Below are positions 7,784 to 59,343 of a stretch of DNA of 64,000 nt, piece by piece (within the stretch, counting starts at the first letter, position 1; every line of letters starts with the position of its first letter). Where the stretch lies: NCBI GenBank assembly GCA_043745805.1, contig JAYTSD010000017.1, positions 32,001 through 96,000 on the forward strand, given 5' to 3'. The translations under genes and the position numbers were made by a program. The notes under the pieces were generated by a model, which worked only from the letters and a program-made list of their open reading frames with translations, was not told the origin of the DNA and did no database searches. Source of the stretch: Fibrobacteria bacterium (GTDB lineage Bacteria > Fibrobacterota > Fibrobacteria > UBA11236).

Positions 7784-8866
7784 TTAATTTAGCGATTGTA
7801 CGGCCACTGCAAAATCGCCGCGATTAATAATACCTGGAAAAATATCATGTAAAAACACCGTGGCCGAATTTTTCCCTACATTTACTAGTACACCGCTAGC
7901 TAAAACTTTATCCGTAACCTTGTGATTGGTGGAATTATAGATTAATAGGACATCTCCAAGTTTAAAACCTTTATTTGCACCTTCGTCGATCAATAAATAA
8001 CCGAATTGTTCAGGTACTTGTTGTTGTTGAACTACAAAAACGACATGGGCGCTTTGATCGCCATTGGGAAGTGGGCTATAAACTTGCCCCGTTAAATCAT
8101 GATATTCATCTACTGGGGTAGCACGCGCTTCGCGCGATATAGTTCCAAAACATTGCACCAAAACGCCAATTGCATTTTTAGTATTAACGCGAGTAATTTT
8201 AACGACACCTTGCGTGGTGACAATTTTACCCAAACGATCGCCACTAGTAAAATGATGAAACATATCACCCGATTCAAAAATTTTATAAAGATCACCGACT
8301 TTAACTCCATCATTGGAGCCTCTGCCAATTTTTATTTCTTCATACAATTGTAAAATAGCGCTTTCATTGGAAGGACTGTATTTAATAGATGTTTCATCGG
8401 GATAAATTTTTCCATGTTGGGTAAACGCAAAAAAGGGCGCATCAAAAATTAATTCGCGGGCAAAATAATGGGTTTCATTAGCGGATTCAGTATTTTTAGA
8501 ATTGCTTTTGATGTCATTGGGATCGGGGATGGGAATATGTTTTGCATCAGTAACTATGGGCAAGCCGTCGATTTTTTTTCGAAAGGCTTTTACTCGAAGT
8601 TCGTTAGCGCTGGGCGCTTTTGCATTTTTAGAAGCTTCCGCTAAGGAGGGTTTGGAATAATCCGCCTTGTTTTTCATGGCCTGATTCTTCGCGGAATCGA
8701 GACCTTCAGCACTTTGAGAATAGTTTTTCCAAACGCTAGGCCATTTAAAGGGATCTTTCAAATAGGTTTTGCTCACTTCCCACAATTCAGCCCCTTTTAG
8801 GGTTTTTGCCTCAATCAGGGTTGATGCGACAATGGTTATCGCAATTATAATGGAAGAAAACTGCAT
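7784..8866 (-). CDS. Exported protein with degenerate LysM and two FlgT_C-like domains (TsaP-like architecture)
   Basis: Signal peptide from the second Met (GAGGG RBS upstream); LWEVSKTYLKDPFKWPSVW LysM-type motif; IGRGSNDGVKVGD and IDEGANKGFKLGD repeats. Confidence 0.6.
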   Translation of the reverse strand: MQFSSIIIAITIVASTLIEAKTLKGAELWEVSKTYLKDPFKWPSVWKNYSQSAEGLDSAKNQAMKNKADYSKPSLAEASKNAKAPSANELRVKAFRKKIDGLPIVTDAKHIPIPDPNDIKSNSKNTESANETHYFARELIFDAPFFAFTQHGKIYPDETSIKYSPSNESAILQLYEEIKIGRGSNDGVKVGDLYKIFESGDMFHHFTSGDRLGKIVTTQGVVKITRVNTKNAIGVLVQCFGTISREARATPVDEYHDLTGQVYSPLPNGDQSAHVVFVVQQQQVPEQFGYLLIDEGANKGFKLGDVLLIYNSTNHKVTDKVLASGVLVNVGKNSATVFLHDIFPGIINRGDFAVAVQSLN

Positions 8867-9240
8867 AAATCCCTCGATCATGGAACTATTTCGAAAATCA
8901 ATCGAAATTCGAAAAACAATGACTAATCATGAGATTTTTTAGGGAATCTGGCAAGGAATTTCCACAAATTAGGCTATAAATCGGGAAATAATTGTCGTTA
9001 TAAAGCCCCTCTTTTGCATGTTTTTAAAAGCGAGCGCTAAAATAGCCCATAAACCACGGAATAACAGGGTTTTGATAGAGGTAAAAAGCGTATTCCTAAA
9101 TGTTGCTTCTAGGTCGTTTATTGGGGCCTTAATAAAGTGCGAAGCAAAGTGCTAATTCGGATAGGCTAAATAACCAGAATTTAACGACTTAAGCCAGCCA
9201 CCCTTTATAATTAAAGCTGCATTCAAAACAGGAGGCAATT

Positions 9241-9501
9241 ATGTTACCAGAACATAATGCAAAATTAATTGAATATTTTACTACCGGCCAGGTAGCGAAA
9301 ATGTTACGCGTATCAGTATCCACTTTAAAGCGATGGTTAGAGGAATCTCCAAATTTAGCTGTGCATCGAGAAAACGCAAGTGGTTGGCGATTATTTACCA
9401 ATTTGGAAATCGCTAAGTTACGCGAATGGCAAAGACGTAAGAAAAAAATCGGAAAAACCTTTAAGCCTTCTACCCTTCGTCCATCCGATGAGAAGGCATA
9501 A
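9241..9501 (+). CDS. Small MerR/BldC/Xis-like helix-turn-helix DNA-binding protein
   Basis: YFTTGQVAKMLRVSVSTLKRW...GWRLFTNLEI motif; AGGAGG RBS upstream; no effector domain. Confidence 0.8.
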   Translation: MLPEHNAKLIEYFTTGQVAKMLRVSVSTLKRWLEESPNLAVHRENASGWRLFTNLEIAKLREWQRRKKKIGKTFKPSTLRPSDEKA

Positions 9502-9504
9502 ATA

Positions 9505-10722
9505 GTGATGAATAAGATGTGTGTCTTACTCTTATGTCTCGGACTCTATGTCTTTACTGCGCAAGCTGCTATTAAGCATTCGCGTGCAGAAGGCTTACCA
9601 GAGTTGTTTGCTTCCAACACAGTTGGCTTAGGCGACATTTGGTTGAGTATAGGATTTTCTTCCTATTTCAAAACTTTAACCGTACATAACGATGTGTTGA
9701 CTGCATTAGTAGATAGCAGTTATCAAAAAGACATTCAACGAGTAGTGGGATCTGATTCTAAAGTGCGTAGGGACATTCTGGTTGCTCCTGATCTGCATGG
9801 CATTATCGGCCTCACTAACTTTTTGCATTTAGAAATCACTAATACTCCATGGGATGGTGAAAAAATTGGCGCGACTACAGCGCATTTAAAATTAACGACA
9901 CCAGGTAATGATAATTTGCGCGTGCTGGGTATTGCGATTAGTATGAATGCTACTTTGGCAACTGATGAGAGTGCAAAGTTAAGTGGGAAGTCAACTCCTG
10001 GCTTTGATCCACAACTTTCGGTTACCGCTATTGCAGATGCCGATCTTATAAAATGGTGGCCGAGTTTTCCTATGAAGCTTTATTTCAATTATTCAAATTT
10101 AGATGAAGTGCGTTTAGCGCATACCTATGAACAACATGTTTTTCAAGTGGCATGGGAATATAAAAGCGAAAAAGTGGGCTATTATGTAAAGGCCGGTGCT
10201 TATTTGTATAAGCCATTACCAAACCCCAGCGATTCTATGACTAAGCTGAATTATCTTCCGTTATTTTATGACATTGGATTTGGCTATAAGAAAAATGTAT
10301 TGGATAAATTTTCTTGCGTGGCAGGTGCCAGTATCGATTTGTTTAAGCCCTTCGCCTTCTATTCGAGCGAAAGTCATAAATCGCCAAAATTATTTTTCCA
10401 AATTACTGGACCGCTCTGGCAACAAGAAACTCGCGCGGAAGCTATTCGGGCTTTGATTTTTCATGAACAGAAACGCAATAAAGTAAAAACGCAAAAAGCA
10501 GATCAAAAAAATATTTCAACTGACAGCAAAAACGATTCAACTATGGCTACACCGGCTTTGCAGGGCGTACAAATGGAAGACATACTCGGCACGCAAAGTG
10601 TGCAAGATGTTAAAGAAAAGAATTTAATGCAGGACGTATTTGAGGATGAAGCCAGTGATTTACTAGAAAAACGTAAACAAATTCGCGGGGAGTTAAAACA
10701 AATTGAGGAGCAGTTAGAATGA
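9505..10722 (+). CDS. Exported putative outer-membrane beta-barrel protein with C-terminal coiled-coil tail (paralog 1)
   Basis: Signal peptide ending AQA; alternating hydrophobic/aromatic strands (YDIGFGYK, GYYVKAGAY); charged helical C-terminus; shares motifs with the next ORF. Confidence 0.5.
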   Translation: MMNKMCVLLLCLGLYVFTAQAAIKHSRAEGLPELFASNTVGLGDIWLSIGFSSYFKTLTVHNDVLTALVDSSYQKDIQRVVGSDSKVRRDILVAPDLHGIIGLTNFLHLEITNTPWDGEKIGATTAHLKLTTPGNDNLRVLGIAISMNATLATDESAKLSGKSTPGFDPQLSVTAIADADLIKWWPSFPMKLYFNYSNLDEVRLAHTYEQHVFQVAWEYKSEKVGYYVKAGAYLYKPLPNPSDSMTKLNYLPLFYDIGFGYKKNVLDKFSCVAGASIDLFKPFAFYSSESHKSPKLFFQITGPLWQQETRAEAIRALIFHEQKRNKVKTQKADQKNISTDSKNDSTMATPALQGVQMEDILGTQSVQDVKEKNLMQDVFEDEASDLLEKRKQIRGELKQIEEQLE

Positions 10723-11978
10723 AAAAAATACTGTATTTATTCATTTTGTGCCTAGCCTGTATTTGCCCTTTGAAAACACATGCTGAAGCGAAACGCTTAC
10801 GTCATGAAGGTTTGTTTGCTTCACAATCTTCGTCTACTTCAGGACGAGGTAACTTAATAGTTACTGCATTTGGAAGAAGTTTTTTATGGGACAATAACGC
10901 TGCGCAAAAGATTCCGCCTACTTTACCTCATTTGGAAATTAATTATGGGGTTACGGATTATCTCGATATTATGGCAGGCACAGGATTGGTGAGTTATACG
11001 CTTCAACCGGGAGAAGTCTATCTGCGTGCAAAAATGACTACACCGGATAATAAAATGATTCGTCTTTTTGCATTTTCACAAATAGTGGAAGTGAATAAAA
11101 ACCTTTCGAATTTTTTTCCTTCTAATGGCTATCGCGTGCAAAATGAGGGTTTTGGTCCCGAAGGATTTATCTATGGAAACTCATCCTTTTTTAATTCGTA
11201 TAAATTCACTACAGCTTTGGATTTAGAATTGATTCGACTCTCTTCATATTTGCCTTTCAAGTTCTACCTGAATTTAGGTATTACAGGTGAATGGGATTCT
11301 TGGATTGAAAAACGCAATCAAAAAGATGCACTTCAAGGCCATTATCAAGCTAGGGATCAAAGCTTTGCTAAAGTGCCGATGAGCTTAGGCTTAGAATTAA
11401 AAACTTATGATTCGGATTTCTTTGTAGAAGTTTCGGGCGAACCTTTTGTCGGTAATGTGAATTCGGAGTTGCAATATTGGTTTGGATCGCGCAAAGAAGG
11501 CGGATGGACACGCTTTCAAATAGGTAACGACAATGGTTCGGCTAAAAATTTTGACGTGCATATTTTTGAAACACCTTGGTATGCCCATGCAGGTACCCGA
11601 GTGAAATATGAAAATGGTTTAACTTTAACGGGCGGATTTTCTTGGTTACTGAGTACCAATCGAGGAGCTGAATTAGGATCTTGCCGTCCTGCATCAAATG
11701 CTTGCCGGGATGAAGGGGTAACGGATGGTTTTTCACCTTTTTATCCGCAGTGGAAAGTTTTTGGACAAATTGAATTTCCCATAATGTTTACCCAACCGTC
11801 AAGTGAATTGTATCGATCCTTTATGCTAAAGCGTTATGAAGAAAAACGCAAAGTAGTAGATGTTGATCAAACTTTGAAAAATACTTCGGCTACGGTGGAA
11901 TCAGATTTAGAAAAAAGAGAAAAGAAATTACAAGAGCGCAGGAAGGAGGCTGACGATCAAAATATTCCTCTTAATTAG
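10719..11978 (+). CDS. Exported putative outer-membrane beta-barrel protein with C-terminal coiled-coil tail (paralog 2)
   Basis: Signal peptide ending THA; LEINYGVTDYLDI and GLTLTGGFSW strands; ATGA overlap with paralog 1. Confidence 0.5.
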   Translation: MKKILYLFILCLACICPLKTHAEAKRLRHEGLFASQSSSTSGRGNLIVTAFGRSFLWDNNAAQKIPPTLPHLEINYGVTDYLDIMAGTGLVSYTLQPGEVYLRAKMTTPDNKMIRLFAFSQIVEVNKNLSNFFPSNGYRVQNEGFGPEGFIYGNSSFFNSYKFTTALDLELIRLSSYLPFKFYLNLGITGEWDSWIEKRNQKDALQGHYQARDQSFAKVPMSLGLELKTYDSDFFVEVSGEPFVGNVNSELQYWFGSRKEGGWTRFQIGNDNGSAKNFDVHIFETPWYAHAGTRVKYENGLTLTGGFSWLLSTNRGAELGSCRPASNACRDEGVTDGFSPFYPQWKVFGQIEFPIMFTQPSSELYRSFMLKRYEEKRKVVDVDQTLKNTSATVESDLEKREKKLQERRKEADDQNIPLN

Positions 11979-14900
11979 CCTCTGCATTTTATGCGGGGTT
12001 AATGTATTAATGCCTCAACAGGCATTTGCGCAACTGTCGCCACAGGAAGAAACACACCTGTGGGCCAAGGCTAATCTATTGGCTGAACAATTGCGAGAGG
12101 AAAAAAAGAAATGGTCAGTATTAGCAGAAGAGTTAGAACGTTTAAAATTTATGGGTGAAGATTATCGCGATTTACAATTGATTCCTAGTCAAATAACACT
12201 GCTCTCAAAAGACGAAGAAGTGCAGTTGGATAAGCGCATTGAGCAAGTGGAAAAACGTCATGCCGATTATCGTAATCAATTACATGACTTAGAAATACCA
12301 CTTAATGATGGTATTTTGGTAGCGCGAGAAATGTTAGAAGGCAATCCGAATACGGATATGATGGAATTAATCTCGCATGATCATTTAGCGCGTGTAGAAA
12401 AATTAATTCGTATTCAAAAAGAGCTTAATCAATTTTGGGATGAAGCTATAGAATTATTAGCGCCCCTGCAAATTAAGATTGGTATTAATCCAGAACGTCA
12501 ACAAGAAGAAGAATATATTAAGGTATTAATGTCGAATATTGGTCGTGCATCCCTGCGCTTCTATCAAAGTTTTAATAATTATAAAGACGGCTTAGCCAAG
12601 CGTGGAACCACTAATGATTGGGAAAAAATGGCTCGTATTGATTTAGGTCGTTTGCAAAAAAGATTGGGATCTCGTAATGCCGAATTAGTTCAACAAGGAT
12701 TGCAACGTTTATGCTTACGCTTTACGGGCAAAATAACTATGGGATCAGGTTATTACTTATTAGGAAATAGTTATTTAGCGCATGCGCAGTATGAGAAAGC
12801 AGCTAGGTCATATGCACGAGTAGAAAACACTAGTCGGAGTTATGCACAAAGTCGTTTGGGTTATTTACAATCTCTATTTGGTGCGCATATGGATGATTCC
12901 TTAGTGTTGGCTTATGGACAGTTTTTGCAAGAAAAAGTATTCGATCAAAAGATGTTTCCTTCAGCCCACTATTTGGCGACACAAAGTTACTACGCCTTAG
13001 GATTGGATTCGGCATTAGAAAGTGAAATGTTACATGATGCGACTAAGGATATTAATCATTATAAATCCTTATTTATTTATGCAAAATCTTTAGTACGGTT
13101 GCATAAGAATAAAGAGGCACGCGCAGTATTGGGGGATTTAAATGCGCAAGCCCAATTGCCACATACATTCCATAATCAAATTCAAATTACCTTAGCGCAT
13201 TTAAGTTATGAAGAAAAATTATATGATCTGGCTTTAAAAGGATATCAAAGCTTATTGGATCAAAATGGATTCCAAGCGGAAGCCTTATATGGCATGATTT
13301 GGAGCAATATTCGCTTAGGGGATATGGATGCTGCGGAATTTATTCTGAAGAAATTGATTGCACAATACCCCAATAATCCCTGGGCTATTGGCGGCTTTAA
13401 TGTATTAGCCCGTAAATTAGCACTCAATGCGGAGAATGCATGGAGTTTAAGCCTGTCCTTGGAAAAAGATAAAGCCCAGTTACAAACGTACAGAAAAAAA
13501 TTACAGAATAGAATTGCAGATCATGCGCTTACGGATGTGGAGGCAAAAAAATTAACTGAAAGATTAAATCAAGCGGAGTCGGCATTATTACAACAACATA
13601 AGGTTCCTATTGAAGATATTTCCAGAATGTATGAACAAGCTTTAGGGCTCTGTGACTTTGTAGAATCGCGTTATCAAACTGGAGAATATACCGATAGAAC
13701 CTATCAACGGGATAGAGAAAATGTGCTACAAAAATTGACGGCTTTAACGAATGAGTCGAGTCCGTCTAATGCAGCAATAGAGGATACCAGTAGTAGTGGT
13801 AGTTTAGCCATGCGTTTAAAAATATTTGAAAATAAATCATTAGCCTTAGATATACGCGTACAACGACGAGCTTGGTTAGAATCGTGGTTAAAATATACGC
13901 AAAGAAAATTAAATGAAGAAATTAATGCCCAGCCTAATGATTCCATAGGCACAGCGAAACAGGCCTATTTACGCAAGCAAACTTTAACCTTGGCCGATCA
14001 GATATCAGAACGCTTAGCCGCTTATAGCGAAGATCTTTTAAATCGCCTCCATCCATTGATGGAAGATCCTGCTTCTTATTCAATTCGCGATTGGTTGCTA
14101 TTCCAAAATGGTTTGTTGAATTATGAACAAGCGGAAAATACTTTGAAAAAACAATGGGCTGCTACGCAATGGTTAGATGCGCAAGGCATTAATAAAGAAG
14201 CGCAATCTACTATTGATTTTATGAGTTATGAAAAACCATGGGAAGAATTATTAGAAAAAAATCCACATTCAGCATATGCGGCAGCAACATTGTATTTCTT
14301 AGGCTTTTCACAAACCGCACGTGGAGAAGCGACAAAGGGCATTCATTCCTTTGAAATGTTGGCGCAGAGTTTCCCTAAATCGTATTATACACAGCAAGCC
14401 TTGGTATTTATTGGAGAATATTTCTTCCGCGAAAACAATTTAATTCGTGCCGAAGAAGCCTTCGATAAAGTATTAGACTTCCCCGATTCCAAATATTTTG
14501 AGCAAGCCCTTTATAAATTAGCTTGGACACGTTTCCGTTCTAGTTCTTATAAGACGGCAATAAGTTCATTCACTTATATCTTAGAAGAATCCTCAACTAA
14601 AGGAAAAATGGAAGGCAAAACTGAGAAGAAAAGTCAGCTTACACAGGAAGCTTTGCAATTCGCGGCTTTGAGTATTGCTGAAGGTGACACCAGTGGAGAC
14701 GGTGGTTTGGGAGCAACTCAAGTTTTTGCTAAAAAATTAGGCGATGGTAAATTGGGTGCTAAGTTAACCCACCGCATGGCAGTTATTTATGCCCAACAAG
14801 GACGTTTGGAAAGAGCTAAAAAAGCTTTGGAAACTTTATTCAAAGATTATCCGGACTATGAAAATTTACCGCAGGCAATGATGGAAATGTCACAGGCATT

Positions 14901-15360
14901 TGATAAAGAACAAAATTATGCAAAGGCTATTGAAGTGCGAGAAGCACTTTTCAGACAATATCATAAAGGATCACCTTGGTATGAAAAACAAACCGTATTA
15001 GCTATTAAAGCGCAAGCGGATACCGTAAATCAATTGGCAACCGAAAGAGTGGCAAATAGTTATTTATATGAAGCAACACAAAACAAAAAGAATACTGTAG
15101 AACAGCAAAAGAAATATTTACGCAAAGCAATTAATACCTATGAAAACTTTTTGCAGGTTTATCCAAATCATCCGCAAAGAGCAAAATATATTTATCAAGA
15201 AGCCGAAGCATATTATGGTTTGGATGATTTTGCGGAAGCCTCTAAACAATATATGCGCGTTTCACGAATTGGGGATGCAAAATTAAAAATGACGGCTGCC
15301 TATAATGCTATTGCTGCGGCGCAGGAATTATTAAAGAAATTGGAAGAGGAAAAGAAATGA
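11950..15360 (+). CDS. Large exported TPR protein (GltC-like region plus N-terminal part of a GltD/AgmU-like protein); start codon uncertain (first ATG at 12010)
   Basis: Many TPR motifs (AEALYGMIW, EQALYKLAWTRFR, YLGFSQ...FPKSYY, AAYNAI). An in-frame hydrophobic signal-like stretch lies upstream of the ATG. Confidence 0.75.
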   Translation: MTIKIFLLISLCILCGVNVLMPQQAFAQLSPQEETHLWAKANLLAEQLREEKKKWSVLAEELERLKFMGEDYRDLQLIPSQITLLSKDEEVQLDKRIEQVEKRHADYRNQLHDLEIPLNDGILVAREMLEGNPNTDMMELISHDHLARVEKLIRIQKELNQFWDEAIELLAPLQIKIGINPERQQEEEYIKVLMSNIGRASLRFYQSFNNYKDGLAKRGTTNDWEKMARIDLGRLQKRLGSRNAELVQQGLQRLCLRFTGKITMGSGYYLLGNSYLAHAQYEKAARSYARVENTSRSYAQSRLGYLQSLFGAHMDDSLVLAYGQFLQEKVFDQKMFPSAHYLATQSYYALGLDSALESEMLHDATKDINHYKSLFIYAKSLVRLHKNKEARAVLGDLNAQAQLPHTFHNQIQITLAHLSYEEKLYDLALKGYQSLLDQNGFQAEALYGMIWSNIRLGDMDAAEFILKKLIAQYPNNPWAIGGFNVLARKLALNAENAWSLSLSLEKDKAQLQTYRKKLQNRIADHALTDVEAKKLTERLNQAESALLQQHKVPIEDISRMYEQALGLCDFVESRYQTGEYTDRTYQRDRENVLQKLTALTNESSPSNAAIEDTSSSGSLAMRLKIFENKSLALDIRVQRRAWLESWLKYTQRKLNEEINAQPNDSIGTAKQAYLRKQTLTLADQISERLAAYSEDLLNRLHPLMEDPASYSIRDWLLFQNGLLNYEQAENTLKKQWAATQWLDAQGINKEAQSTIDFMSYEKPWEELLEKNPHSAYAAATLYFLGFSQTARGEATKGIHSFEMLAQSFPKSYYTQQALVFIGEYFFRENNLIRAEEAFDKVLDFPDSKYFEQALYKLAWTRFRSSSYKTAISSFTYILEESSTKGKMEGKTEKKSQLTQEALQFAALSIAEGDTSGDGGLGATQVFAKKLGDGKLGAKLTHRMAVIYAQQGRLERAKKALETLFKDYPDYENLPQAMMEMSQAFDKEQNYAKAIEVREALFRQYHKGSPWYEKQTVLAIKAQADTVNQLATERVANSYLYEATQNKKNTVEQQKKYLRKAINTYENFLQVYPNHPQRAKYIYQEAEAYYGLDDFAEASKQYMRVSRIGDAKLKMTAAYNAIAAAQELLKKLEEEKK

Positions 15361-18089
15361 TAAATTTGTTAATCATTTTATTTTGCCTAGTTTCTTGTAC
15401 ACGGCATCCTGGAAACGAAACAGCAAAATCATTAGTCGTGGAAAATGTGGTGGTTCAGGTGCCAAAAGATGATAGCGTGGTAACGCTTGATTTTCAAATT
15501 AAAAATTTGGATAGCTTGCGTGCTACCTCCGCTTATGCTTCTGATTTATACTTGTTAACCTTAGATAATTTTTTAGAAGTAGGTGGAAAAGATGAGCGTT
15601 TGCCAGAAATTACCATTTGGAAAGCAAATCATTTATATAATCGAAATGCATTTAAAGAAGCTCTAGCGCTTTATCAAAAATTTCAGCAAAAATATCCCGA
15701 TAGTAAATTTAATGGAGAAGCGGGACAAATGATTGCGCAGTGCTATGCGCAATTGGGTCAGAATGATAAGGCGGAAGCTTTTTATCGTGGTTTATTAACA
15801 CAAGGAGACGTGGCGGTACGCGGTGAAGCACAGGCTAGAGTTGCACAAACCTTATATTTACAAGCAGAAAGCGCTGAAAAAAATGGAGATTTAAAAAAGG
15901 CTTCGGATATTTATGCACGGGTTGCAAATGAATTTCCAACGGTGGAAATCTCACCCGTGGCATTATTCAATGCCGGTGTACTACAAGAAAAAATTAAAGA
16001 TTGGAATTCAGCTATTGCCTTATACCATAAATTTTTTGACGCTTATTATTCGAATAATATGTTGCCAAAAGTTTTATTTCGGGAAGCGAAATGCTTTGAA
16101 CAATTAAGTATTTGGGATTCGGTTGCGCAAAAATATACAAATTTAGCTCGCGCATTTCCCAAATCACCTGAAGCAGAATTGGCGGCTTATAATGCTGGTT
16201 TTGCTTTTGCGAATGCACTTAAGCAAAAAGAAGCGGCTTTGGCATTTGAAAATTATGCCAAACAATTTCCGGATAAATCCGAAGCGCCTAATTTATTATT
16301 TCGAGCGGCGGAAATGTATGGCGAATTGAAAGCTTGGGATAAAGTGGGGGAGTTACAGGGATTATTTGCCAAGCGTTATGCCAGCGATAAAACACGTTTG
16401 ATTCAAGCCCTATGTATGGGCGGCATGGCGGCTTTTCAACAAGAACACTTCGAGGAAGCCAAGAGATTATTAGAAAATACCTTAGCTGAATTTTTTAAAC
16501 AAAAATCAATGGATCCCAATTCGCGTTATTATGCCGCGCAAGCGCAACACACTTTAGCAGAAATGGAATGGGGCAATTTCTTAAAAATTTCGTGGACGGA
16601 TAAAAGCAATAATTTTGAAGCGGTATTAAAAAATAAAACCCAACAAATGAAAAAAACCGTTTCGGCCTATTTACATGTATTTGATCTTAAAATTGTGGAT
16701 TGGAGTTTGCGTTCGGCCAACTCCTTAGGAAATGCTTTTGGTAAATATGCAATTGATATTTATGAAGCACCTAGAAAAGCGATTAAAAAGGATCAAGATG
16801 AATGGGAAATTGAAGCAGATACTTATACCGCACTAATTAATACCATGGGGAAGGCTCAAGATCAATTTGCACAGGTATTAGCACTTGCCGAAAAACAAGA
16901 TGTGCATAATATTTGGGTGGATCAAGCGAGACAACAACTAGGAATATTAGCCACACAACTAATTAATATTCATGCCCAAGTTGAGCAGCGTACTTTAAAG
17001 TCGATCCACGAAGAAGATGGGAATTCCGATAAGGCCATTGCCAATGCATTAAAATTAGCTGGCCGAGTGCGCGATATCGCCGAAATTTCTCAAGGGTATT
17101 ATAAAAGTTACCTCGATATAGCCGCAGAAGTCGTTTTGGATAGCGAAGTGAATACTAAGGTAAGTGTTGCCTTGCTGAACAGCTCTTTGTCCTTAGGCCA
17201 AAGTTATCTGAAAGTGGTTACCCTTGCAAGGGGTGCTAACATTCCCAAAAATTTTCAAGCTATGGAAAGTTTTTATTATAAAGCAAAATTGTTGCAAGAA
17301 GGTTTACCCAAATTTGAAAAAGTGGCTATTGAGTATCTTCGCAATGGATTGGAACTTGCTGAATTATATGGATTAGAAGACAGTTTGCGTATTAATAATT
17401 TGAAAAAATCACTGGGAGAAGAATTGTATACTGAGGCTTATGCCCTTGATTTGTTGGGTCAAGAAGCACTTTTGCATCCCCCTATGCCGGAGAAAATTAG
17501 CGAAGTAGAGAAAAAAACCTATAGTGAAAAATTAGAGAATACGGGATATCAATTACAGGATAAGGCCATAGAAAAATATAAGCAAATTGTGGATTTAGCG
17601 ATGGTTAATAAAGTGGATTTACAGTTTGCTAAAAAGGCTTTTGCCCGTCTTTATCAAGTTGAGCCGGATAAATGGTCGAATGACGACAAGCCCATTTACC
17701 CTTGGAATTCCGAATACCCCTCCATGGAAGAAATTCAAAACTTGAGAAACGATCAGCCGGTATTACCAAACTTTCCTCCGGTTTTGCCAGTTACCCAAGC
17801 GAAAGTAAATATGCCAGTAACACCCAAAGTACATGATTCGACTAAATCTGTGAAGGATTCTGTAACAAAAATAGATACCGTAACAAAATCTGTTGCTCAA
17901 GCCATAAAGAATGATACAGTAGAAAAAGTGGATTCTCCCATAAAAGTTGAGTCCATGTTGAAAGTAGATCCGGTAATTAAAAGGGAAGAGAACATTGACA
18001 TTACAAAGTCAATAATTCCCATGCCTGAGGCAATTATTAAAATGGATACAACTGTTAAAGTAGATACGCTAATTAGCGTCGATAAATAA
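15357..18089 (+). CDS. TPR lipoprotein resembling the C-terminal part of GltD/AgmU-like proteins, with low-complexity K-V-D-[ST] tail
   Basis: Lipoprotein signal MINLLIILFCLVSC; TPRs (ALFNAG, AAYNAGFAF, LLFRAAE); W-x4-AN-xLG...YEAP and NIWVDQARQQL motifs. Confidence 0.75.
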   Translation: MINLLIILFCLVSCTRHPGNETAKSLVVENVVVQVPKDDSVVTLDFQIKNLDSLRATSAYASDLYLLTLDNFLEVGGKDERLPEITIWKANHLYNRNAFKEALALYQKFQQKYPDSKFNGEAGQMIAQCYAQLGQNDKAEAFYRGLLTQGDVAVRGEAQARVAQTLYLQAESAEKNGDLKKASDIYARVANEFPTVEISPVALFNAGVLQEKIKDWNSAIALYHKFFDAYYSNNMLPKVLFREAKCFEQLSIWDSVAQKYTNLARAFPKSPEAELAAYNAGFAFANALKQKEAALAFENYAKQFPDKSEAPNLLFRAAEMYGELKAWDKVGELQGLFAKRYASDKTRLIQALCMGGMAAFQQEHFEEAKRLLENTLAEFFKQKSMDPNSRYYAAQAQHTLAEMEWGNFLKISWTDKSNNFEAVLKNKTQQMKKTVSAYLHVFDLKIVDWSLRSANSLGNAFGKYAIDIYEAPRKAIKKDQDEWEIEADTYTALINTMGKAQDQFAQVLALAEKQDVHNIWVDQARQQLGILATQLINIHAQVEQRTLKSIHEEDGNSDKAIANALKLAGRVRDIAEISQGYYKSYLDIAAEVVLDSEVNTKVSVALLNSSLSLGQSYLKVVTLARGANIPKNFQAMESFYYKAKLLQEGLPKFEKVAIEYLRNGLELAELYGLEDSLRINNLKKSLGEELYTEAYALDLLGQEALLHPPMPEKISEVEKKTYSEKLENTGYQLQDKAIEKYKQIVDLAMVNKVDLQFAKKAFARLYQVEPDKWSNDDKPIYPWNSEYPSMEEIQNLRNDQPVLPNFPPVLPVTQAKVNMPVTPKVHDSTKSVKDSVTKIDTVTKSVAQAIKNDTVEKVDSPIKVESMLKVDPVIKREENIDITKSIIPMPEAIIKMDTTVKVDTLISVDK

Positions 18090-18167
18090 TGCCGACTAAA
18101 AAAAAGCGCAAGAAATAGGCCTATATTGTTTCTTTAGATTTGTGTGTATTCCTCCGATAAAGATACT

Positions 18168-18476
18168 ATGCTAAAAAATAAATCTTTAATAAATGCCTTA
18201 TTCATCGTAACTTTAAGTTTCATTTCAGCTTTTGCGACAACAAAAAAAAGCTCGCTACCCTCTAAAAGCAATACTGATAAGCCTGTAGAAGTCATTTCTA
18301 AAATGTCCGAAGAAATTAGTTTTGGAAAAAATTTAGTGGTGGAAGGTAAAGTGGAAAAGCCACAAGTTCAATTCCCACTTGTTAAAGAAGCCCCTCCCGA
18401 GAAGCCAATTCAATTTGAAACTAGCTTTCTTCCCAAAATACTCTATCTCGAAAGAGAGAATACTTTTACAGAATAA
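18168..18476 (+). CDS. Small exported GltF/CglF-like protein
   Basis: Signal peptide ending AFA. The C-terminal ISFGKNLVVEGKVEKPQVQF...ETSFLPKI matches the I/V-EG-xx-x-KP...SFLPxI pattern I recall for GltF/CglF-like proteins. It lies directly after the TPR genes. Confidence 0.6.
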   Translation: MLKNKSLINALFIVTLSFISAFATTKKSSLPSKSNTDKPVEVISKMSEEISFGKNLVVEGKVEKPQVQFPLVKEAPPEKPIQFETSFLPKILYLERENTFTE

Positions 18477-18639
18477 TTTTGAGTGTGTTGATGAATTTGT
18501 TAAAACTCGAGATTTTTGAGTATGCAATTTAATGTCATTGTGCAAGATCAGTGGTAACATAAAATGGCTATTTCATAAAGGAAACGCCATTGCTTAGGCT
18601 TTTTGACAAATGTTTTATAAGGGAAATTAAAGGGAAAAA

Positions 18640-18668
18640 GTGATAAATGTTACACGTAACATTATAGT
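18640..18668 (+). promoter_or_regulatory. Candidate sigma70-type promoter of the giant gene with a perfect inverted repeat in the spacer
   Basis: GTGATA (18640-45), 17-bp spacer, TATAGT (18663-68); palindrome AATGTTAC-AC-GTAACATT at 18646-18663. Confidence 0.45.
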
Positions 18669-18703
18669 TATCAAAGGGAATATCAATTTTCTTCCGGATT
18701 TAT

Positions 18704-30700: not shown

Positions 30701-33700
30701 GCCGATTGGATTAAACTGAGTTATGAAACACAAAAATCAGGCGCCACCGCAGTTCAATTAGGACAAAGACCAATTGATTTCACAAACTCCACGCGTTTTA
30801 ATTTTAACACCACGGTTACAGGTGCGAATGTTTCGGGAAATGTAACCAATATACCAATACTGATTAATCTAACGTCCTCTAATTTTGATTTTTCCAAGAC
30901 GACCAATACTGGAACCGATATTCAATTCGTCGATAGAGATGGAAGCTATTTATACCATGAAATCGTTGACTGGGATAAAGGAAATAGCACTGGAAAAGTA
31001 TGGGTTAAAGTTCCCCAAGTCGATGGTAATCTCAGTACTGATTTTATTACTTTATATTATGGTTGCTCGGCTTGTACCGCGAGTCCTTATGCCGTTAAGG
31101 ATTCCGTATGGAGTGGTTACAAATCAGTTTTCCATTTGAATGCCCCCGAAGATTTAGCCTATGATGCAACCACCTTAGCTAATCATGGGGCGTATGCCGA
31201 TAATCAATCCAATGTCACCGGTTTAACTGGAAAAAATGCGCTTAACTTCAATGGCACCTCAAATAAAATTGATGTTCCCAATGAAAGTAATTATGACTTT
31301 ACGACTAATATGACAGTATCCGCATGGGTCAAGGTGACTACCTTGACAAAGGCTTGGCAGGCCATTGTAACCAAGGGCGATGGTTCATGGCGTATCATGC
31401 GGAATAATCAAACTAATGGTGCTGAGTTCTCATTAACTAATGGTTCAAATTATGATGCGGCGGGATCTACTAGTATTAATGATGGCAATTGGCATATGTT
31501 AACCGGAACCTATGATGGCACCACTGCAAAATTGTATGTGGATGGCGCGCAAGATGCCTCTTTGGCTGGGCCGGCTAGCATTGCGAATGGTTCTTATGAT
31601 GTAATGATAGGGGAAAATAAGCAAACTACGGGTCGATATTGGGATGGAAATATTAGCGAAGTACGTTTAGCCAATTCCGCAATTGTACAATCTGCGGATT
31701 TCATTAAGCTCAGTTATGAAAATCAAAAATCCACTAGTACACTTTTTTCCACCACAACTTTTTCTACGGCTTCATTCCAAAAGAGTAAAAAATATCAATT
31801 CAATACTACGGCGTCGGGCGCAAATGTTTCTGGCGATATTTATAGTTTTCCAACCTTAATACGAGTGAATACGAATGCGGCTGGGACAGCCACTCCCATT
31901 GTAGATTTAACTCAATCGGCGGGACAAGATATTCGTTTCTTAGCTTCGGACGGGGTAACTTGGTTAGATTATCAAATTGAAAGATGGGATCCTACTCTTG
32001 ACAGTGGCGAAGTATGGGTTAAAGTTCCTGTGATTCATGGAAATAGCAATGCCGATTTTATCACGATGTATTATCAACAAGCTTCAGGCGTTACTGTACC
32101 CGATGGACAATGTGCCTCTTGTGTCTTTAGTAGTTATAAAGCAGTATATCATTTAAGCGAAAGTCCTGGCGGTTCGGCACCACAATTTACGGATTTGTCA
32201 GGCAATGCCAATCATGGAACGGCACAGGGGGGTGTCTCGGGGGATAAAGTTTCTGCCGATATAGGAACAGGATATCAGCTCAATGGAACTAGTAAATATA
32301 TTAGTACAACCACCCAGTTTACAAATATCAATACATTTACCAATGGGCTATGGTTTAAAACGACGTCTACCACAGGAGGTATGTTATTCGGTTGGGACGG
32401 TGGTCAGGTTGCTTATTCAGGAAGTCATGATAGACATTTGTGGATGGATAATACAGGTAAATTGAATTTTGGAACTTATAATGGTTCATTTCAAAATATT
32501 GCTTCTACGGCTGCCTATAATGATGGCAATTGGCATTATGCCGTAGGTCGCCTCTCTTTAGCGGGTGAATTTCTCTATGTGGATGGCGCTTCGGTTGCTT
32601 CTAATACGGCTTATACCATTGGTGAAAATACCAGTGCATACTGGCGTTTTGGATATGGAAATACTGACTGGAGTCCCACGCCCACATCCAAATATATAAA
32701 TGGAACGCTAGATGAAATTACGGTTTCACATAATGAGCTGAGTGCTGACTGGATAAAATTGGCTTATCAAAATCAAAGGCGAGATGCAAATTCCTTATTT
32801 AATCCCAGCCCAAGCGATTTTCAAAAAACCAAAAAGTTTGTTTTCAATACCACAAAAACAGGTGCCAATATCATGGACAGTGTCACCAACTTTCCTGTGC
32901 TGGTAAGATTTACAGATGCGGATGCAGGACTGTTAAGTTTAGTGCAATCGGGTGCGCCCGATATTCGTTTCTTAGATGGGGATGGAAAAACCTGGCTTAA
33001 TTATCAAGTTGAACGATGGAGTACCGCTACGTCACCGGACTCAGCAGAAATCTGGGTGAAGGTTCCGCAAGTCGATGGAAACAGCGATCATGATTTCATC
33101 ACCATGTATTATCAACAGGCCACAGGGGTTACGGTAGCTGATGGGCAATGCGCCTCTTGTGTTTTTGATACCGCCAATGGATATAAAGCTGTTTATCACT
33201 TAGGAGAAGCCGCGAACACAACTGCGGGTGGATATGCCGATGCGACCCTAAACGCCTATAATGGAACCGGTAGTAGTATGAGCAACACTGCTGTTGCAGG
33301 TGTCATTGGTAAAGCCCAAAGTTTAAATGGATCTTCGGATTATATCTCCGCATCAGGAAAAGCCGTTGTATTAGGGGCTGCGGCTCGTACTTTTTCCATT
33401 TGGGCGAATGTTACGGGATTTTCGGGAGTAAATACCAATGATGGAGCATTGTTTCAGGGTGGTAAAACAGGTGCATCCGCTGGGAAAGATTTCACATTTA
33501 GAGTGGCTGGAAATACCGATGATAATTTCCAAATGAATTATTGGACCACCAATGTTCCAGTTACGGTAACTGGTGCAAAAAATAATTGGAAAAATTTTGT
33601 GATGAATTATTCAGGAACGCGTTCCCAGCTTTGGGTAAACGGAGTTTTAACATTGGATACCGCAGTGACTCTGAGTACCGACACCAATACCACAGGCCCG

Positions 33701-36700
33701 TCAGCATTTCGCATAGGCTATTGGAGCGGTGGATCGCCGGATTATTTGACCGGTTTAGTCGATGAAATGGTGGTATCTAATGTGTTACGCGATTCCAATT
33801 GGATTAAATTAGCGTATCAAAATCAACGCGCTTCAGGTAATATATTTTGGAATACTCGCACTAGTCCAAATAATAAAGTGACTCTTAGTTCTTCAGTATC
33901 CAGCACAGGAATTAATTTATCCTGGGGATCTTCTGTATCAGATTCTACCAATGCGGATTCAGTTGGCCTTTGGGTGAAGTATACCGCACCTACTACTGCA
34001 TACTCCAAATTAAATTTTCCAGATAGTGCGAATACTGGTTCCTTTGTGGTGCGTTTACCTATTGCAGATACCACTTATAGCTATCCCGATTTTGCTCCGC
34101 AAATGTATTATTTCGCCTTAGCGGTTCGTAACACTTCTGGAGTTTGGAGTCCAATAACCAGTACCTCAAGTGATACGGCTATCATTTATGGAACGGCTAA
34201 ATTAGATACCGTGTATGTAGATTCTGCTGGAAGTAATTCGAATAGTTGTTCTGATGCAAAAGAACCTAGACTTGCCAAAAAAACCTTAACCTCCGCATTA
34301 ACATGTAGCCCTACTAATGACACCCTAGTTATTAAAGTTATGGCGGGACTTTATACCAATGCGGGTGATGCCGACTTGGCACCCACGGGCAGTGCATCCA
34401 AGGCTTATAAAATAATGGCCTTAGATAAAAATTCACGTCCGGTTCTTAATACCAACGGAACTACATATACCACGCAATTGAATAGCCATGTGCATTTGTA
34501 TAATGCGGATATTAAATGTGGAGTTGATGCTAAGCCGGGCGTACTCTTTAAGGCTGCCAATACCGATATGACTTTATATGGTTGTCGTATTTTAAATGCT
34601 TCGTCTAGTGTGCGTAATAGTGTGGGTATAAGCGGCGGTAGTAGTTCCACGGCGAGAATTTTAATTGCCAATAATATTATCGATAGTATGAGCCAAACGG
34701 GTATTCAATTGCCTAATGTAGCAGATGTAAATGTATTTAATAATGTGATATATAATGGTGGGGGAGCCGCCACAGATACTGGAATTACGGTTACCGGGGC
34801 TAATGGTACGGTAAGTAATATTGCTATTAGCAATAATATTATTAACGGAACTTCAGTGGGTACTTATACCGCGGATGCCTCTATCGGACAACTGTCCAAT
34901 AATTTATTTCATCGCGTTCCTACAGGATATGAAAATCGTGGATCACAAACTGATGCTTCCAAAGTGGTTAAAGATCCTTTGTTTGCCTCAACGGCTTGGT
35001 CTAGTAAATATATGAAGCTCTTACCCAGCTCGCCAGCTATAGATGCGGGAGTGGATACTGTTCCTACTGCCTTTACTTTTACACGCATTCCTTATACGGA
35101 TATTTTTGGAAGCACTCGACCCGTTGGCACTGCACGTGATATAGGTGCTTATGAGGGAACAGGATATGTTCCAGGATTAACCGGTGATTTTGATAGCTTA
35201 ACCACAACTTCTACGGCTACTACCATTACGGTATACAATAACAAATGGAAAATTGTATTTGACAAAGCCAAAGGGGGAGGCATTAGTGAATTTTATGATC
35301 AAACCGCGCCATCGACCAATTTAATGGGTTCCTCAGCGGTTACCTTATTTGATGCGAAAATTGATAGCTACACTGCTTCTTCGCAAACAACCTTGGCAAG
35401 CGCTCCATCTTACCTTATTCAATCACGGGCGCATATGGGTGTGAAACAAGTTTTAAGCGTTTCCGCTAATTTAGTGTTAAATATTTACTATCATATTTAT
35501 CCTTCGGGACATATTTATGTGACCAGTGAAATGATTAATCAAGCGTCTAGCAACACAGCCATTGGAACAGTTGACTATAATTTGCAGGTTGGTACGGCAG
35601 TTACTGCTTTCCATAGTGGTGGTACAAAAAATGGTTATGGCTATTTAACCACCGCAACGCGTGATGCTTATTTAGGGATATTGCAGGACCTCGATGCTGG
35701 AGCAACTTCGGCTGATACCTGGACCGGAACGCCAACTTTAGGTTCGAATAAATTAGTTTATGCGACCACAAATCTGGAAGACTTAACAGGCTACAATACA
35801 CGTCAACAACATTTTCTTTTATACATAGGCGATGGGGCCATAGACGGTACCAAGGCGGCAACCTTAAATGATGATAATTATACTCCCTCACCTGTTACGG
35901 TATCCGAAGGGTCACTTTTACATTTACGCTCTTGGCAAGATGAATTGGTGGGCCATTGGACTTTTGATGACGGCGCCGGAACAGTAGCTAACGACAAATC
36001 GGTGGTGGGGACTAATCATGGAACTATAACCAGTGGAACTTTTGTGGCGGGTAAATGGGCCAGTGCTTTGCGAATGACCACCTCTTCCGTAGTGACCGTG
36101 CCCACTGCGGCATCTTTAGATGCCGGCTTAGGTAAAACTTATATGTTCTGGGTCAAGCCTGATTTTGCAGCCATGGGCGCAACCGCTCGGTATATTAGTA
36201 AAGGGATTACCACAGGTTCTGGTTGGTATGCGCAAAGACCTTCGGGTTTAAGTCAATTGACATTTTATATTGGTGGAACATCGGGTACCGTAACACTTAC
36301 GGGTAGTACATGGAATCACTTAGCTGCTGTTGTTTCTTCTACTGGTGTATTGTCGCTTTATGTAAATGGAGTACTTAAAACATCGGCCACGGGAATTGTT
36401 GCTCCGGTTACGAATAGTACAAGTTTATTATTTGGTTCCGGTGGGGCAGATGCCAATAGCTTTGCGGGAGATTTAGATGATATTCGCATTTATACAGGTA
36501 ATACCGCGGTTATGGGAGAATCAGATATTCAAGCCATTTATAATCAAGGATTTAGTAGTAAATTAGGTCAATATCATTTGCGCAGCAATAATAATAATCG
36601 CATTGTCGCTGTATTAAATGAAGCCAAGGCGCAAACTCGTTTTCAACCCAAGTTTGTAATTGATAATTGGTACGGCCCGCAAACTCCCGTTTATGTTTAT

Positions 36701-38806: not shown

Positions 38807-38967
38807 AACCCCAGAGTTGCCTTTTTTGGTACACTTGTAAATATAAAGCTATTGCATAAAATTCAAAAGATTGGAACCCTTATTCCCATTTGGAGCATTA
38901 TTAACAACAAATTTGTGCGCAAGTGCCTTATATTTACTGGGGGAATAAATAAAGTTTAGGGGACAAT

Positions 38968-41025
38968 ATGCAAATTCAGCGAGTTTTAATTTTCATGGCA
39001 TTATTGTCCCATGCGATTTTTGCACAACAAGTTTGTGATTTGACTTTTACCGATTGTCCAAAAACTTTTAATGGAAAAACCTTGGTGGTGGGCAATGATA
39101 TTAAATCCATTGCTGCGAAAATAAGATATTGTACGGAAGGTCAAGTGGTTTCAGGTGGAACAAGTGAGCCAGTTTCCATTGTTTTTATAATTGATAATTC
39201 AGGAAGTATGCGCGGCGGAGATGGCAATGATCCATCAAATGCTCGATTTAATGTTGTTCCTGAATTGATTGATACGCTTTATAAAATTTCACCAGATGTC
39301 GAAGTCGGATTGGTTGTATTTACCAGACGTCTTTTATTTGATGATAGAGTAAATCCTTATTTTAAATCACTATTTAATGATGGTGTTCAACATGACGGTT
39401 ATGTCCCGCTCACTGCACTGAACAAATCATTTGGCAATGGCAAATTAGGTGTAGATACATTAAAAGCATTTTTAAAAATCAATCCCAATGTTGATCTTGT
39501 AAATGGCTTAAATGAGTCCAATAGATATGCATTTACAAATGGACGTAGAACAAATGCGAATGCGAATGACAGTACTAATATTAAAGACGGTACAGATATA
39601 AACCTTGGTTTTGAGGCCGCGAGAGCCGCTATGGCAAGTTCAAAATTTACGGATAAAAATAAACATTTTTTTATTTTCCTATCCGATGGCGAACCTTCTG
39701 GAGTAGATAAAGGCCGACCAGCACAAGATTTGTTTAGATATGGAAGAAATGTACCCACTACTTTCACCATATTTTTTAATAAAGATCCTAAAGCACCTGC
39801 CCCTGGATTAATTACGGAGATGACGGATAGCATTAAAATTAATCACTACTCAACCATCAGCAATCCTAAAAGCAAAGTGACCACTAGTGCTAATCCTAAA
39901 AATGAACTAAAACAAATTCTTTTTCAAAATGTATTCTCTAACATCATTGTAAACAGCAAAGCCAATCAATTTACGCTCAATGATCGCGTATCAACCACTT
40001 CCGACGGTACAGATTTTACCTTTAGCAAGCGCTATCCGTTAAATGCCGACAAAACCGATGTCAAAATGCAAATCAGTTATAACTATAGCGATAATAATGT
40101 GGTTAAGTCAAAAACTGATACCATTAACTTTACCGTGCAGCGCAGTGCCACAGCCACTTTGGCACCAGGATTGGATGCAGTTTGTCATGCTCCCGCCACG
40201 GTAGCGCTTTATTCCAATGGCCAACCCATTACCACGGTTTTGGATGAACAAAAAACTTTGGAAGCGCGTGTTACCTTGCCTACTGGGGAAACTTGCATAG
40301 GTTGCTTTACCACCTTAAGTTCAAGCAATGGAACCGACATTGAAAAATTAAATTTGGCAGCGAACAAAACAATTCTTTCCGGAAACTTTAATCGTTCTAT
40401 TAATTCAAATCCTTCTAAAAATGGTGCGTTAGAGCATGCCGAAACAGATAATATTATTTTAGTTTATCACAATGCCGACGTCCCTTTGGATACGATACGC
40501 GTAAGTTACCCTTTTAAATTTATCCCTCTGATTCCAGGCGATTTAGTAGTGTCAAACCATAATACGGTAGCTAAACCTCAAATCAGTGAAATGTCAAATG
40601 ATTCCCATCAATGGACATTAGTGGGGCCATCTAATTTGCAAGTTGAAAGTAGTGATGCTACTAAGTGCTGTAAAATAATTGATGCCGAGCATGCCAAAAC
40701 AGAATTCTCTTCTTATGTCGGTTTTGTTTTGCAGGCTTCTCGTGCTTTTTCCGTGGATGTAAAAGTCTTCGATCATTTGGGATTGTATATCAATAAATTG
40801 CATTTAAAAGTTTCACAAAATGAATTTGATAAATTGCCTAAAGGCTCAACAAAGGGCACGAGCACTCTAAGTTTATTATGGAATAGTCGCACTGAGGACG
40901 GTGGCTTTGTGGGAACCGGCGTGTATATTTTTAAAACACAGATGCATTTAGAGCCTTTAGCAGGGGCGAAAGATGCGGATAGTAGCTTTGTGCGCACTTA
41001 TGGAGTACTTCGAGCTAGCTATTAA
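38968..41025 (+). CDS. Secreted von Willebrand factor A domain protein with C-terminal sorting-like domain
   Basis: Signal peptide ending IFA; MIDAS IIDNSGSM, GTDI and FLSDGEP; tail VKVFDHLG...LLWNSRTEDGGFVGTGVYIFK. Confidence 0.8.
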   Translation: MQIQRVLIFMALLSHAIFAQQVCDLTFTDCPKTFNGKTLVVGNDIKSIAAKIRYCTEGQVVSGGTSEPVSIVFIIDNSGSMRGGDGNDPSNARFNVVPELIDTLYKISPDVEVGLVVFTRRLLFDDRVNPYFKSLFNDGVQHDGYVPLTALNKSFGNGKLGVDTLKAFLKINPNVDLVNGLNESNRYAFTNGRRTNANANDSTNIKDGTDINLGFEAARAAMASSKFTDKNKHFFIFLSDGEPSGVDKGRPAQDLFRYGRNVPTTFTIFFNKDPKAPAPGLITEMTDSIKINHYSTISNPKSKVTTSANPKNELKQILFQNVFSNIIVNSKANQFTLNDRVSTTSDGTDFTFSKRYPLNADKTDVKMQISYNYSDNNVVKSKTDTINFTVQRSATATLAPGLDAVCHAPATVALYSNGQPITTVLDEQKTLEARVTLPTGETCIGCFTTLSSSNGTDIEKLNLAANKTILSGNFNRSINSNPSKNGALEHAETDNIILVYHNADVPLDTIRVSYPFKFIPLIPGDLVVSNHNTVAKPQISEMSNDSHQWTLVGPSNLQVESSDATKCCKIIDAEHAKTEFSSYVGFVLQASRAFSVDVKVFDHLGLYINKLHLKVSQNEFDKLPKGSTKGTSTLSLLWNSRTEDGGFVGTGVYIFKTQMHLEPLAGAKDADSSFVRTYGVLRASY

Positions 41026-49997: not shown

Positions 49998-50145
49998 ATA
50001 TATCCCTAAACGTCCTTTAAGTTTTTTTAGTCTTTCATGACATTATAATTTCTTGTGATTTGCCTAAAAATTAACCCTTTCGGCTTTTTTTTACTTGTTG
50101 AATTCTTTCACCATCCCGTAATGTGTGAATAGAGAAGTAGAAAAT

Positions 50146-51204: not shown

Positions 51205-51217
51205 GCTTAAACTTTGT

Positions 51218-52768: not shown

Positions 52769-52771
52769 AAC

Positions 52772-53503: not shown

Positions 53504-53626
53504 AAATGCCTCCCTATTCTTGCGAGGAAAGATAGAAAAGGGAGAGAGTGATGAACTAAAAAATAGTGGTTAATTAGCGTTCATTTATATTGAAATAGCC
53601 AAAGCGGCGGCATCATGCGGGGGTAA

Positions 53627-59220: not shown

Positions 59221-59343
59221 TTTCTCGATTATATCAAGAAACGCAAGCGGCATTCCAGCACTCTCTTATTGCAAATCAACATCTTTAAAGTGAATCTTAA
59301 TTTTCCCCACATCATCTTTCCTAAAATTCCTAACTTTACCCGC

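Follow-up and report, generated by a model that had tools for sequence, protein, structure and literature searches.

The question raised by positions 9241-41025 of a 64,000-nucleotide stretch of contig JAYTSD010000017.1 (Fibrobacteria bacterium, assembly GCA_043745805.1; hereafter the window) is whether the genes that lie there form one surface machine, and on what such a machine would work. The initial annotation had described a co-oriented run of a helix-turn-helix (HTH) regulator, two barrel-like proteins, two tetratricopeptide-repeat (TPR) proteins, a small protein, a giant protein with a type IX secretion system (T9SS) C-terminal domain (CTD), and a von Willebrand factor A (vWA) protein; all eight open reading frames (ORFs) were verified on the plus strand, exactly where first described. 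The explanation favoured here, by a modest measure, is that the first six genes encode one half, outer-membrane and periplasmic, of a second machine of the Agl-Glt/Nfs type that is specific to Fibrobacterota, with a role in surface polysaccharide and with the giant protein as its partner. The function of the Glt core complex outside myxobacteria has been an open question since 2011.

The six genes at 9241-18476 are a conserved cassette, of which the giant and vWA genes are physically not part. The cassette comprises a MerR/BldC-like HTH protein of 86 residues (9241-9501; Pfam MerR_1, E 3e-8), the barrel proteins B1 (405 residues, 9505-10722) and B2 (419 residues, 10719-11978), TPR1 (1116 residues, 12010-15360), the lipoprotein TPR2 (910 residues, 15357-18089) and a small secreted protein, F (18144-18476), which bears the motif GKVEKPQV and counts 102 residues if it starts at the ATG at 18168 or 110 if it starts at a GTG. 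The gaps between these genes are 3, -4, 31, -4 and 54 nt, and spacers of 227, 161 and 65 nt precede the giant gene, the vWA gene and gcvT, respectively. The TPR1 frame is open from position 11911, so its true start probably lies upstream of 12010. Scans with Pfam and NCBIfam recognised TPR repeats in both large proteins and assigned no family to B1, B2 or F.

Conservation was followed across 251 Fibrobacterota genomes, and gene order in 53 loci from a GTDB scan, some of which are the same contigs, and in 19 full loci around B2 (L031-L049). B2 was found in 71 of the 251 genomes and in none of the 113 belonging to family f4. The order B1-B2-TPR1-TPR2 is kept in 19/19 loci, with an HTH gene called first in 18; one locus has a short TPR2 and is without F. 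All 53 scanned loci are from Fibrobacterota, as are those that are named among the 79 homologues of B1. In none of the 53 loci does a homologue of the giant or vWA protein occur in the stretch of up to 10 kb beyond the TPR2 match; seven of the loci end too early to judge, and only three contain a small CTD gene.

Evidence as to what the cassette works with comes from the genes that follow it. In 30 of the 53 loci it is succeeded directly by an ExbB/TolQ-like gene, two ExbD-like genes and a GltG-like gene, and 26 of these 30 loci continue into wza and wzc. From the lack of motor genes in the window, the initial annotation had deduced that any motor must be encoded elsewhere, and this proved correct: the motor was found on another contig of the same genome at C4:63994-66627, its AglR/Q/S-type genes occupying C4:63994-65621, as part of an orthologous module that extends over C4:63994-69683 and is followed by wzx, glycosyltransferase, wbaP-like and wzy-like genes. 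Models of TolQ/ExbB and ExbD/TolR pick up the motor genes. The GltG-like protein matches NF033768 (AgmX/PglI C-terminal domain) with 75 bits against a cut-off of 40, but reaches only 59 of 650 bits with the full-length GltG model and is without the N-terminal FHA part. The full motor-polysaccharide operon (L052:7995 to L053:6311, i.e., G000:C4:63994-82310, G000 being this genome) reads R, Q, S, G, wza, wzc, wzx, glycosyltransferases, wbaP-like, wzy-like and heptosyltransferase-like genes, with mltG last; the same gene closes the polysaccharide operon in the three other family-f1 genomes examined (3/3). In most motor operons a STAS (anti-sigma antagonist-like) gene stands between the two exbD-like genes (L041:13534-13860), a position from which it is missing in family f1. 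The wbaP gene is too generic to be profiled outside families f1 and f2.

Where cassette and motor lie apart, as they do here, the motor remains with polysaccharide export: Q-S-G precedes wzc in this genome and in 12/12 other genomes cut out (R is labelled in 10 and wza in 11 of the 12, the remainder being masked by an overlap filter). Since four B2-negative genomes hold full TPR1 and TPR2, 75 genomes are cassette-positive and 176 are not; these tallies include the unpublished genome G194, and the results are the same without it. With a Q profile that splits orthologues, at E 3e-51 or below, from paralogues, at 4e-39 or above, the Q orthologue was detected in 70/75 cassette-positive genomes vs 0/176 others. 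The cassette and the C4 motor very likely form one machine. The conserved wza-wzc link is the strongest functional clue: the co-occurrence of motor and cassette, together with the continuation into wza-wzc, points to an Nfs-like machine working on surface polysaccharide, and the retention of Q-S-G before wzc upon splitting counts for the same role. According to the accessible text of Wartel et al. (PMC3858216), nfsA-H forms a single cluster, a paralogue of gltA-H, and together with AglRQS it assembles the Exo coat exported by Wza; the resemblance of the order barrel, barrel, C, D, F, G to nfsA-H, as set out there, is counted for the Nfs-like reading. It is probable that the machine acts on the linked polysaccharide.

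The kinship with Glt is clearest in the TPR pair. Residues 680-1103 of TPR1 align to residues 124-553 of a 1190-residue GltD-type paralogue on contig C8 (E 4e-24), and residues 55-523 of TPR2 to residues 571-1076 of the same protein (E 2e-30). This colinearity indicates that the pair corresponds to a split GltD-like protein, so that a putative GltD/NfsD homologue is identified, indirectly, via the C8 protein, its family-f4 orthologues and Fisuc_1893. TPR1 begins with a helical region. In addition, it possibly carries a GltC-like stretch in front of its GltD-like half: a profile of residues 317-606 weakly matches the upstream gene of Fisuc_1892 size (744-749 residues; E about 1e-13), and comparison with the C8 copy gives an HHalign value of 94%, a level that generic TPRs can reach. 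The GltC model NF033756 does not match TPR1, the GltE model NF033758 matches neither TPR1 nor TPR2, and the cassette has no separate GltE/NfsE lipoprotein gene. Queried with the TPR profiles, PDB sequences yielded only generic TPR proteins and a single rhamnosidase domain, and a plasmid collection one weak generic TPR match, with no Myxococcota or gammaproteobacterial Glt sequence. The TPR2 family has an invariant Cys14, as a lipoprotein, and a tail matching residues 116-245 of rhamnosidase 3w5m (E 5e-11), presumably a CBM67 module. An unsplit paralogue occurs in genome G244 (C80:2560-6519), where a 1465-residue ORF joins the C-terminal half of TPR1, the N-terminal half of TPR2 and the TPR2 tail.

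For the small protein F, the top three Atlas clusters are from Myxococcota, one of them named CglF, with a score of 0.87 (bar 0.9), and the CglF model NF033764 gives no match at E up to 1. Its size and position fit, and its GltF/CglF-like character is only a lead. Of the Glt-type scaffold initially proposed, the Agl-Glt/Nfs lineage is supported, while the barrel, GltF, GltC and GltE identities are unproven.

The C8 paralogue belongs to a second Glt-core cluster (L051:4854-15672; G000:C8:180853-191671), located beside mreBCD-pbp2, which encodes a PorP/SprF-like barrel-TPR fusion (742 residues), the GltD-type TPR protein, R, Q, S and G, an extra 88-residue G-type C-terminal ORF and a PopA-like barrel. 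This cluster matches Fisuc_1892-1897 in order and size, with an orthologue in 5/5 family-f4 genomes; in the available sections of Luciano et al. (PMC3169522), the Fisuc genes are given as homologues of GltC, GltD, AglR, AglS and GltG. It may be speculated, given that SprA is present and that no GldL/M/N was found over cut-off in five genomes, that the C8 cluster is a candidate energiser of the Fibrobacterota T9SS.

The two barrel proteins show no pairwise BLAST similarity, and are paralogues by profile comparison (HHalign 99.9%, E 4e-36), as the initial annotation had suspected; both carry C-terminal helices. The AF2 model of B2 (pLDDT 86) is a 12-stranded barrel with an N-terminal plug, closest to the COG4313 channel 4rl8 (Z 18.2, root-mean-square deviation 3.1, 231 residues aligned), followed by FapF 5o65 (Z 17.8). 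The B2 family is small, with 117 matches among 1.84 billion representatives. No NCBIfam or Pfam model matches B1 or B2. Of the GltA/GltB-family barrels, GltA is described as OmpA-like; B2 is modelled as FapF-like. The GfcD/YjbH family PF06082 likewise matches neither barrel, with one borderline relative at E 0.036; the N-terminal barrel of GfcD/YjbH is reported to have the FapF fold (PMC9603273). This sharing of a fold with a capsule barrel is counted for the polysaccharide reading, as are the rhamnosidase ancillary domain of the TPR2 family and the glycan-type folds of the giant tail described below.

From the observed homologies, folds, gene order and co-inheritance, we infer which parts touch, how energy is coupled, what the substrate is and what the giant protein does, as follows. 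An ExbB/ExbD/ExbD (AglRQS-like) proton motor would act on a single-pass GltG/TonB-like protein, which would engage F and the TPR1+TPR2 scaffold, a lipoprotein-anchored split GltD-like assembly. The scaffold and F may in turn connect to the B1/B2 plugged barrel pair, and the machine would capture, spread or move the Wzx/Wzy polysaccharide delivered by the motor-linked Wza-Wzc, as Agl-Nfs does with Exo. The giant protein would be exported separately by the SprA/PorU T9SS and would most likely belong to the same trait, as a lectin or adhesin on the cell surface that binds the polymer or tethers it to surfaces. This wiring rests on the Cambillau and Mignot model of Glt contacts, as presented in the accessible portion of PMC11761067. 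A complex prediction for the periplasmic part of the C4 GltG-like protein with F scored 0.00, which gives no answer and is evidence neither way.

The giant protein (6700 residues, 18704-38806) has a signal peptide, a stalk of PATR repeats, DUF2341 and LamG modules, a conserved tail of about 1200 residues and a C-terminal FlgD_ig/Por_Secre_tail-like domain of the T9SS type, according to Pfam and NCBIfam. The CTD is borderline, FlgD_ig reaching 27.6 bits vs a cut-off of 27 and TIGR04183 21.8 bits vs 23; Por_Secre_tail matches 13 of 17 homologues. The last 1200 residues are conserved across the phylum, in the order supersandwich, LamG, Ig-like, supersandwich, Ig-like. In a model of this tail (pLDDT 72), a mutarotase-like supersandwich is predicted at residues 3-229 (Z about 14), a LamG domain at 231-449 (Z 22 against an arabinanase domain) and another supersandwich at 557-897 (Z 15.6 against a rhamnogalacturonan lyase domain). 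The modelled folds are of lectin or glycan-associated types, and fold sharing alone shows no function. Matches of the tail to neurotoxin receptor-binding folds were rejected as functionally meaningless, reflecting only the LamG jelly-roll and being tied with the arabinanase domain.

It is at the level of whole genomes that the giant protein is connected to the cassette. The search used a profile of a 506-residue stretch of the giant protein without LamG or CTD, built from cassette-positive genomes, with only six candidates scored per genome. The giant domain was found in 62/251 genomes, namely in 61/75 cassette-positive genomes vs 1/176 others (G151, 77% complete). Control proteins were scored in 80 chosen genomes, 40 cassette-positive and 40 negative. 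MglA, present in 34/40 positives and 29/40 negatives, does not track the cassette; FliF occurs in 39/40 positives and 17/40 negatives, G151 being the single one of these 17 with the giant domain; SprA (TIGR04189 over cut-off) is present in 78/80 genomes, this one included; and a 1841-residue CTD protein is sporadic (5/80). The giant domain thus tracks the cassette more tightly than any of these four. Furthermore, within the genera g2 (1/10) and g27 (2/6) the counts are identical for B2 and the giant domain, with flagella following in both cases. Taking into account that the independent losses number perhaps five to seven, the tie between giant protein and cassette is a strong lead, not proof. 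Of the initially proposed link between the two, genome-level co-inheritance stands and adjacency does not.

Several observations weigh against the favoured explanation. Four of the 30 motor-linked loci are without adjacent wza-wzc, one of them ending at a contig edge, and five cassette-positive genomes have no Q orthologue at the threshold used. The linked Wza ends in an amphipathic helix of its own, and hence may not need a barrel partner. No sequence relatives of the barrels with Glt or capsule names were detected, no curated Glt model (GltC, GltE, CglF or CglB) matches any cassette protein, and the sugar-binding-like tail of TPR2 is degenerate, by alignment, in the window copy. With regard to the giant protein, 14 of the 75 cassette-positive genomes are without its domain; 113 of the 176 negatives belong to one family, the genomes being kin, and for most negatives the tests covered B2, Q and the giant domain only. 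Finally, 39/40 positives of the control set are flagellated too, so that lifestyle explains part of the co-loss.

This last point leads to the alternative that survives best, in which cassette and motor form a polysaccharide machine and the giant protein is independent, co-lost through lifestyle shifts and brought here by a chance rearrangement. Contig coordinates place the giant domain next to B2 in this genome only, among 58 genomes with both (in one other they are 90 kb apart); in the 15 genomes cut out, homologues of 2749-5997 residues, plus one cut at a contig end, are solitary among unrelated genes. A search for longer homologues gave 2 matches among 7999 scored, being crowded out. The initial annotation's expectation of a conserved linkage between this cluster and CTD adhesins is therefore abandoned. 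Relatives of family f1 carry pgm, rlmD and STAS genes between F and gcvT; in this genome these three lie about 60 kb downstream of that slot (G000:C17:110320-114151), a displacement that speaks for a rearrangement. An iterated profile detects a CTD-like tail in about 75 ORFs of this genome, and the same losses are seen for FliF in family f4 and in the genera g2 and g27. The independence of the giant protein is opposed by its presence in just one of the 17 flagellated cassette-negative genomes, by the fact that three of four apparent exceptions turned out to hold full TPR1 and TPR2, and by the sporadic distribution of the control CTD protein. This account, a serious contender although less probable than the favoured one, is compatible with the polysaccharide role and overlaps the best explanation; the chances that the giant protein is a functional partner of the machine are evenly balanced.

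A more far-reaching possibility, which we regard as unlikely, is a hybrid surface machine in which a myxobacterial-type motor and scaffold, Wza/Wzc polysaccharide and a T9SS giant adhesin together move the cell or its matrix. The AglRQS-like motor would move the scaffold, the giant protein would be the moving adhesin, a cargo like SprB or RemA carried along a Glt-like track, and the slime that it grips would be the polysaccharide. If true, it would join gliding principles of Myxococcota and Bacteroidota in one system. That motor, scaffold, polysaccharide export and a single giant CTD family, variable in length among relatives, are inherited together is consistent with gliding, as are the mglA/mglB-like genes of this genome, the failure of GldL/M/N models to exceed their cut-offs in five genomes (where the control genomes were silent too), and the mltG gene at the end of the polysaccharide operon, since the MltG homologue AgmT serves Myxococcus gliding (accessible text of PMC11444678). 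Set against it are the distribution of MglA, which ignores that of the cassette, a GltG-like protein deprived of the cytoplasmic FHA part, the lack of any CglB-type adhesin among the proteins found, and the flagella of nearly all cassette-positive genomes. Moreover, Luciano et al. judged the core complex insufficient for motility (available sections of PMC3169522), and the accessible part of a 2026 gliding review makes no mention of Fibrobacter. The mglB-mglA-mglB-like locus lies at G000:C6:128863-131972 and encodes a 615-residue MglA with a long C-terminal extension, found in 63 of the 80 genomes.

It is improbable that the machine serves TonB-like uptake or Tol-Pal-like envelope maintenance, with the motor opening COG4313-like barrels for small-molecule import and the wza-wzc link merely positional. 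The best fold match of B2, a COG4313 channel, and the scores of the motor genes with TolQ/ExbB and ExbD/TolR models would agree with uptake; however, splitting of the operon leaves the motor beside wza-wzc, a GltD-like scaffold of 2000 residues is not known as part of uptake systems, and even genomes without the cassette have a separate, paralogous cluster next to mreBCD. The weakest proposal, that the cassette serves generally to secrete or anchor CTD proteins, is suggested by the two adjacent CTD proteins here and by the lack of a GldL/M/N motor among the finds in five genomes, with silent controls, and is very improbable, since SprA is near-universal, most cassette-negative genomes included, PorU- and PorZ-like genes are encoded separately and any CTD gene at all is seen in only 3/53 loci.

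The T9SS attachment-type genes of the window lie at 48555-59253 and include a PorZ-like propeller (48555-49997), a 359-residue protein (50125-51204) located between the PorZ-like and PorU-like genes, and a 1618-residue PorU-like C25 peptidase with a CTD (53627-58483); a second PorU is at C8:73115-77272. The last gene of the run (38968-41025) encodes the 685-residue vWA protein (Pfam VWA_2), with DxSxS at residue 76 and a CTD-like tail. Its family occurs in 17/31 family-f1 genomes and in 0/7 others of the order, never at the cassette, and the protein has neither a CglB match in NCBIfam nor a lipobox. These results do not support it as the CglB counterpart that was first envisaged; the vWA gene is a family-restricted passenger, outside the system.

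A mis-assembly at the boundary between cassette and giant gene is unlikely, as this junction is spanned by one 10.7-kb contig in runs X1 and X2, a possible source of the DNA, and by 0.72-kb contigs in runs X3 and X4 of the same study. Promoter and terminator scans were at chance level (29 vs 30.8 and 7 vs 8.3, respectively). Upstream of the cassette, a divergent gene on the minus strand (7784-8881) has a FlgT_C domain and a degenerate LysM-like start, and we take it to be TsaP-like; it is kept at this place in family f1 and in one f2 locus only.

A literature search, outside which most subscription papers lay, found no description of the cassette; a 2015 work by Agrebi et al. on capsule biogenesis and surface motility reportedly may already propose a Glt-capsule link. 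A motor fused to a Wzx/Wzy-Wza-Wzc locus across the phylum makes the polysaccharide role directly testable and provides an independent parallel to Agl-Nfs. What is new is that one giant T9SS-type protein of glycan-binding type is kept and lost with the machine, as a candidate surface partner, and the polymer-degrading Fibrobacterota may thus possess an unrecognised surface motility or holdfast formation.

Among known systems, the Bacteroidota T9SS gliding adhesins (SprB) resemble the giant protein in being giant, variable-length CTD surface proteins, and SprA, PorU- and PorZ-like genes are present here; RemA, among these adhesins, is a lectin with wza/wzc. The repeats of the giant protein are, in contrast, of PATR, DUF2341 and LamG type, the co-inherited motor is AglRQS-like, and no GldL/M/N exceeds its cut-off in the five genomes searched, controls being silent as well. 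The Agl-Glt gliding machine with CglB shares the same protein classes, and mglA/mglB-like genes are in the genome; it differs in having a CglB-type lipoprotein, of which none was found here, the vWA protein being a family-restricted CTD protein, in the FHA part that the GltG-like protein lacks, and in that MglA does not track the cassette. With group 4 capsule GfcD/YjbH (accessible part of PMC9603273) the system shares a FapF-like barrel tied to a wza/wzc locus, but where the capsule system has one double-barrel protein, the cassette encodes its two FapF-like barrels as separate proteins that have C-terminal helices and are coupled to a motor.

The core complex reported by Luciano et al. in 2011 (Fisuc_1892-1897 of Fibrobacter succinogenes) likewise has GltD-, GltC-, GltG- and AglRQS-type genes, and TPR1 and TPR2 are homologous to the Fisuc_1893-type protein. 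Its counterpart in this genome is, however, the cluster at C8:182288-191671 beside mreBCD; the cassette of the window is its paralogue and contains an F-like gene as well as two separate barrels, and family f4 has the Fisuc-type cluster in 5/5 genomes tested, whereas B2 was not found in its 113 genomes. Another close system is Agl-Nfs of Myxococcus xanthus (PMC3858216), which combines two barrels, TPR proteins of C and D type, a small protein like F and a transducer like G with an ExbB/ExbD/ExbD motor and a Wza/Wzc-exported polysaccharide (Exo, with ExoA of Wza type). Relative to it, no separate E or H was found for the Fibrobacterota system, which has FapF-like 12-stranded barrels and a GltD-like protein split in two with a putative GltC-like stretch fused in front. 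Furthermore, it includes HTH and STAS genes, its motor and wza-wzc often stand in the same operon, and a T9SS-type giant protein is co-inherited with it.

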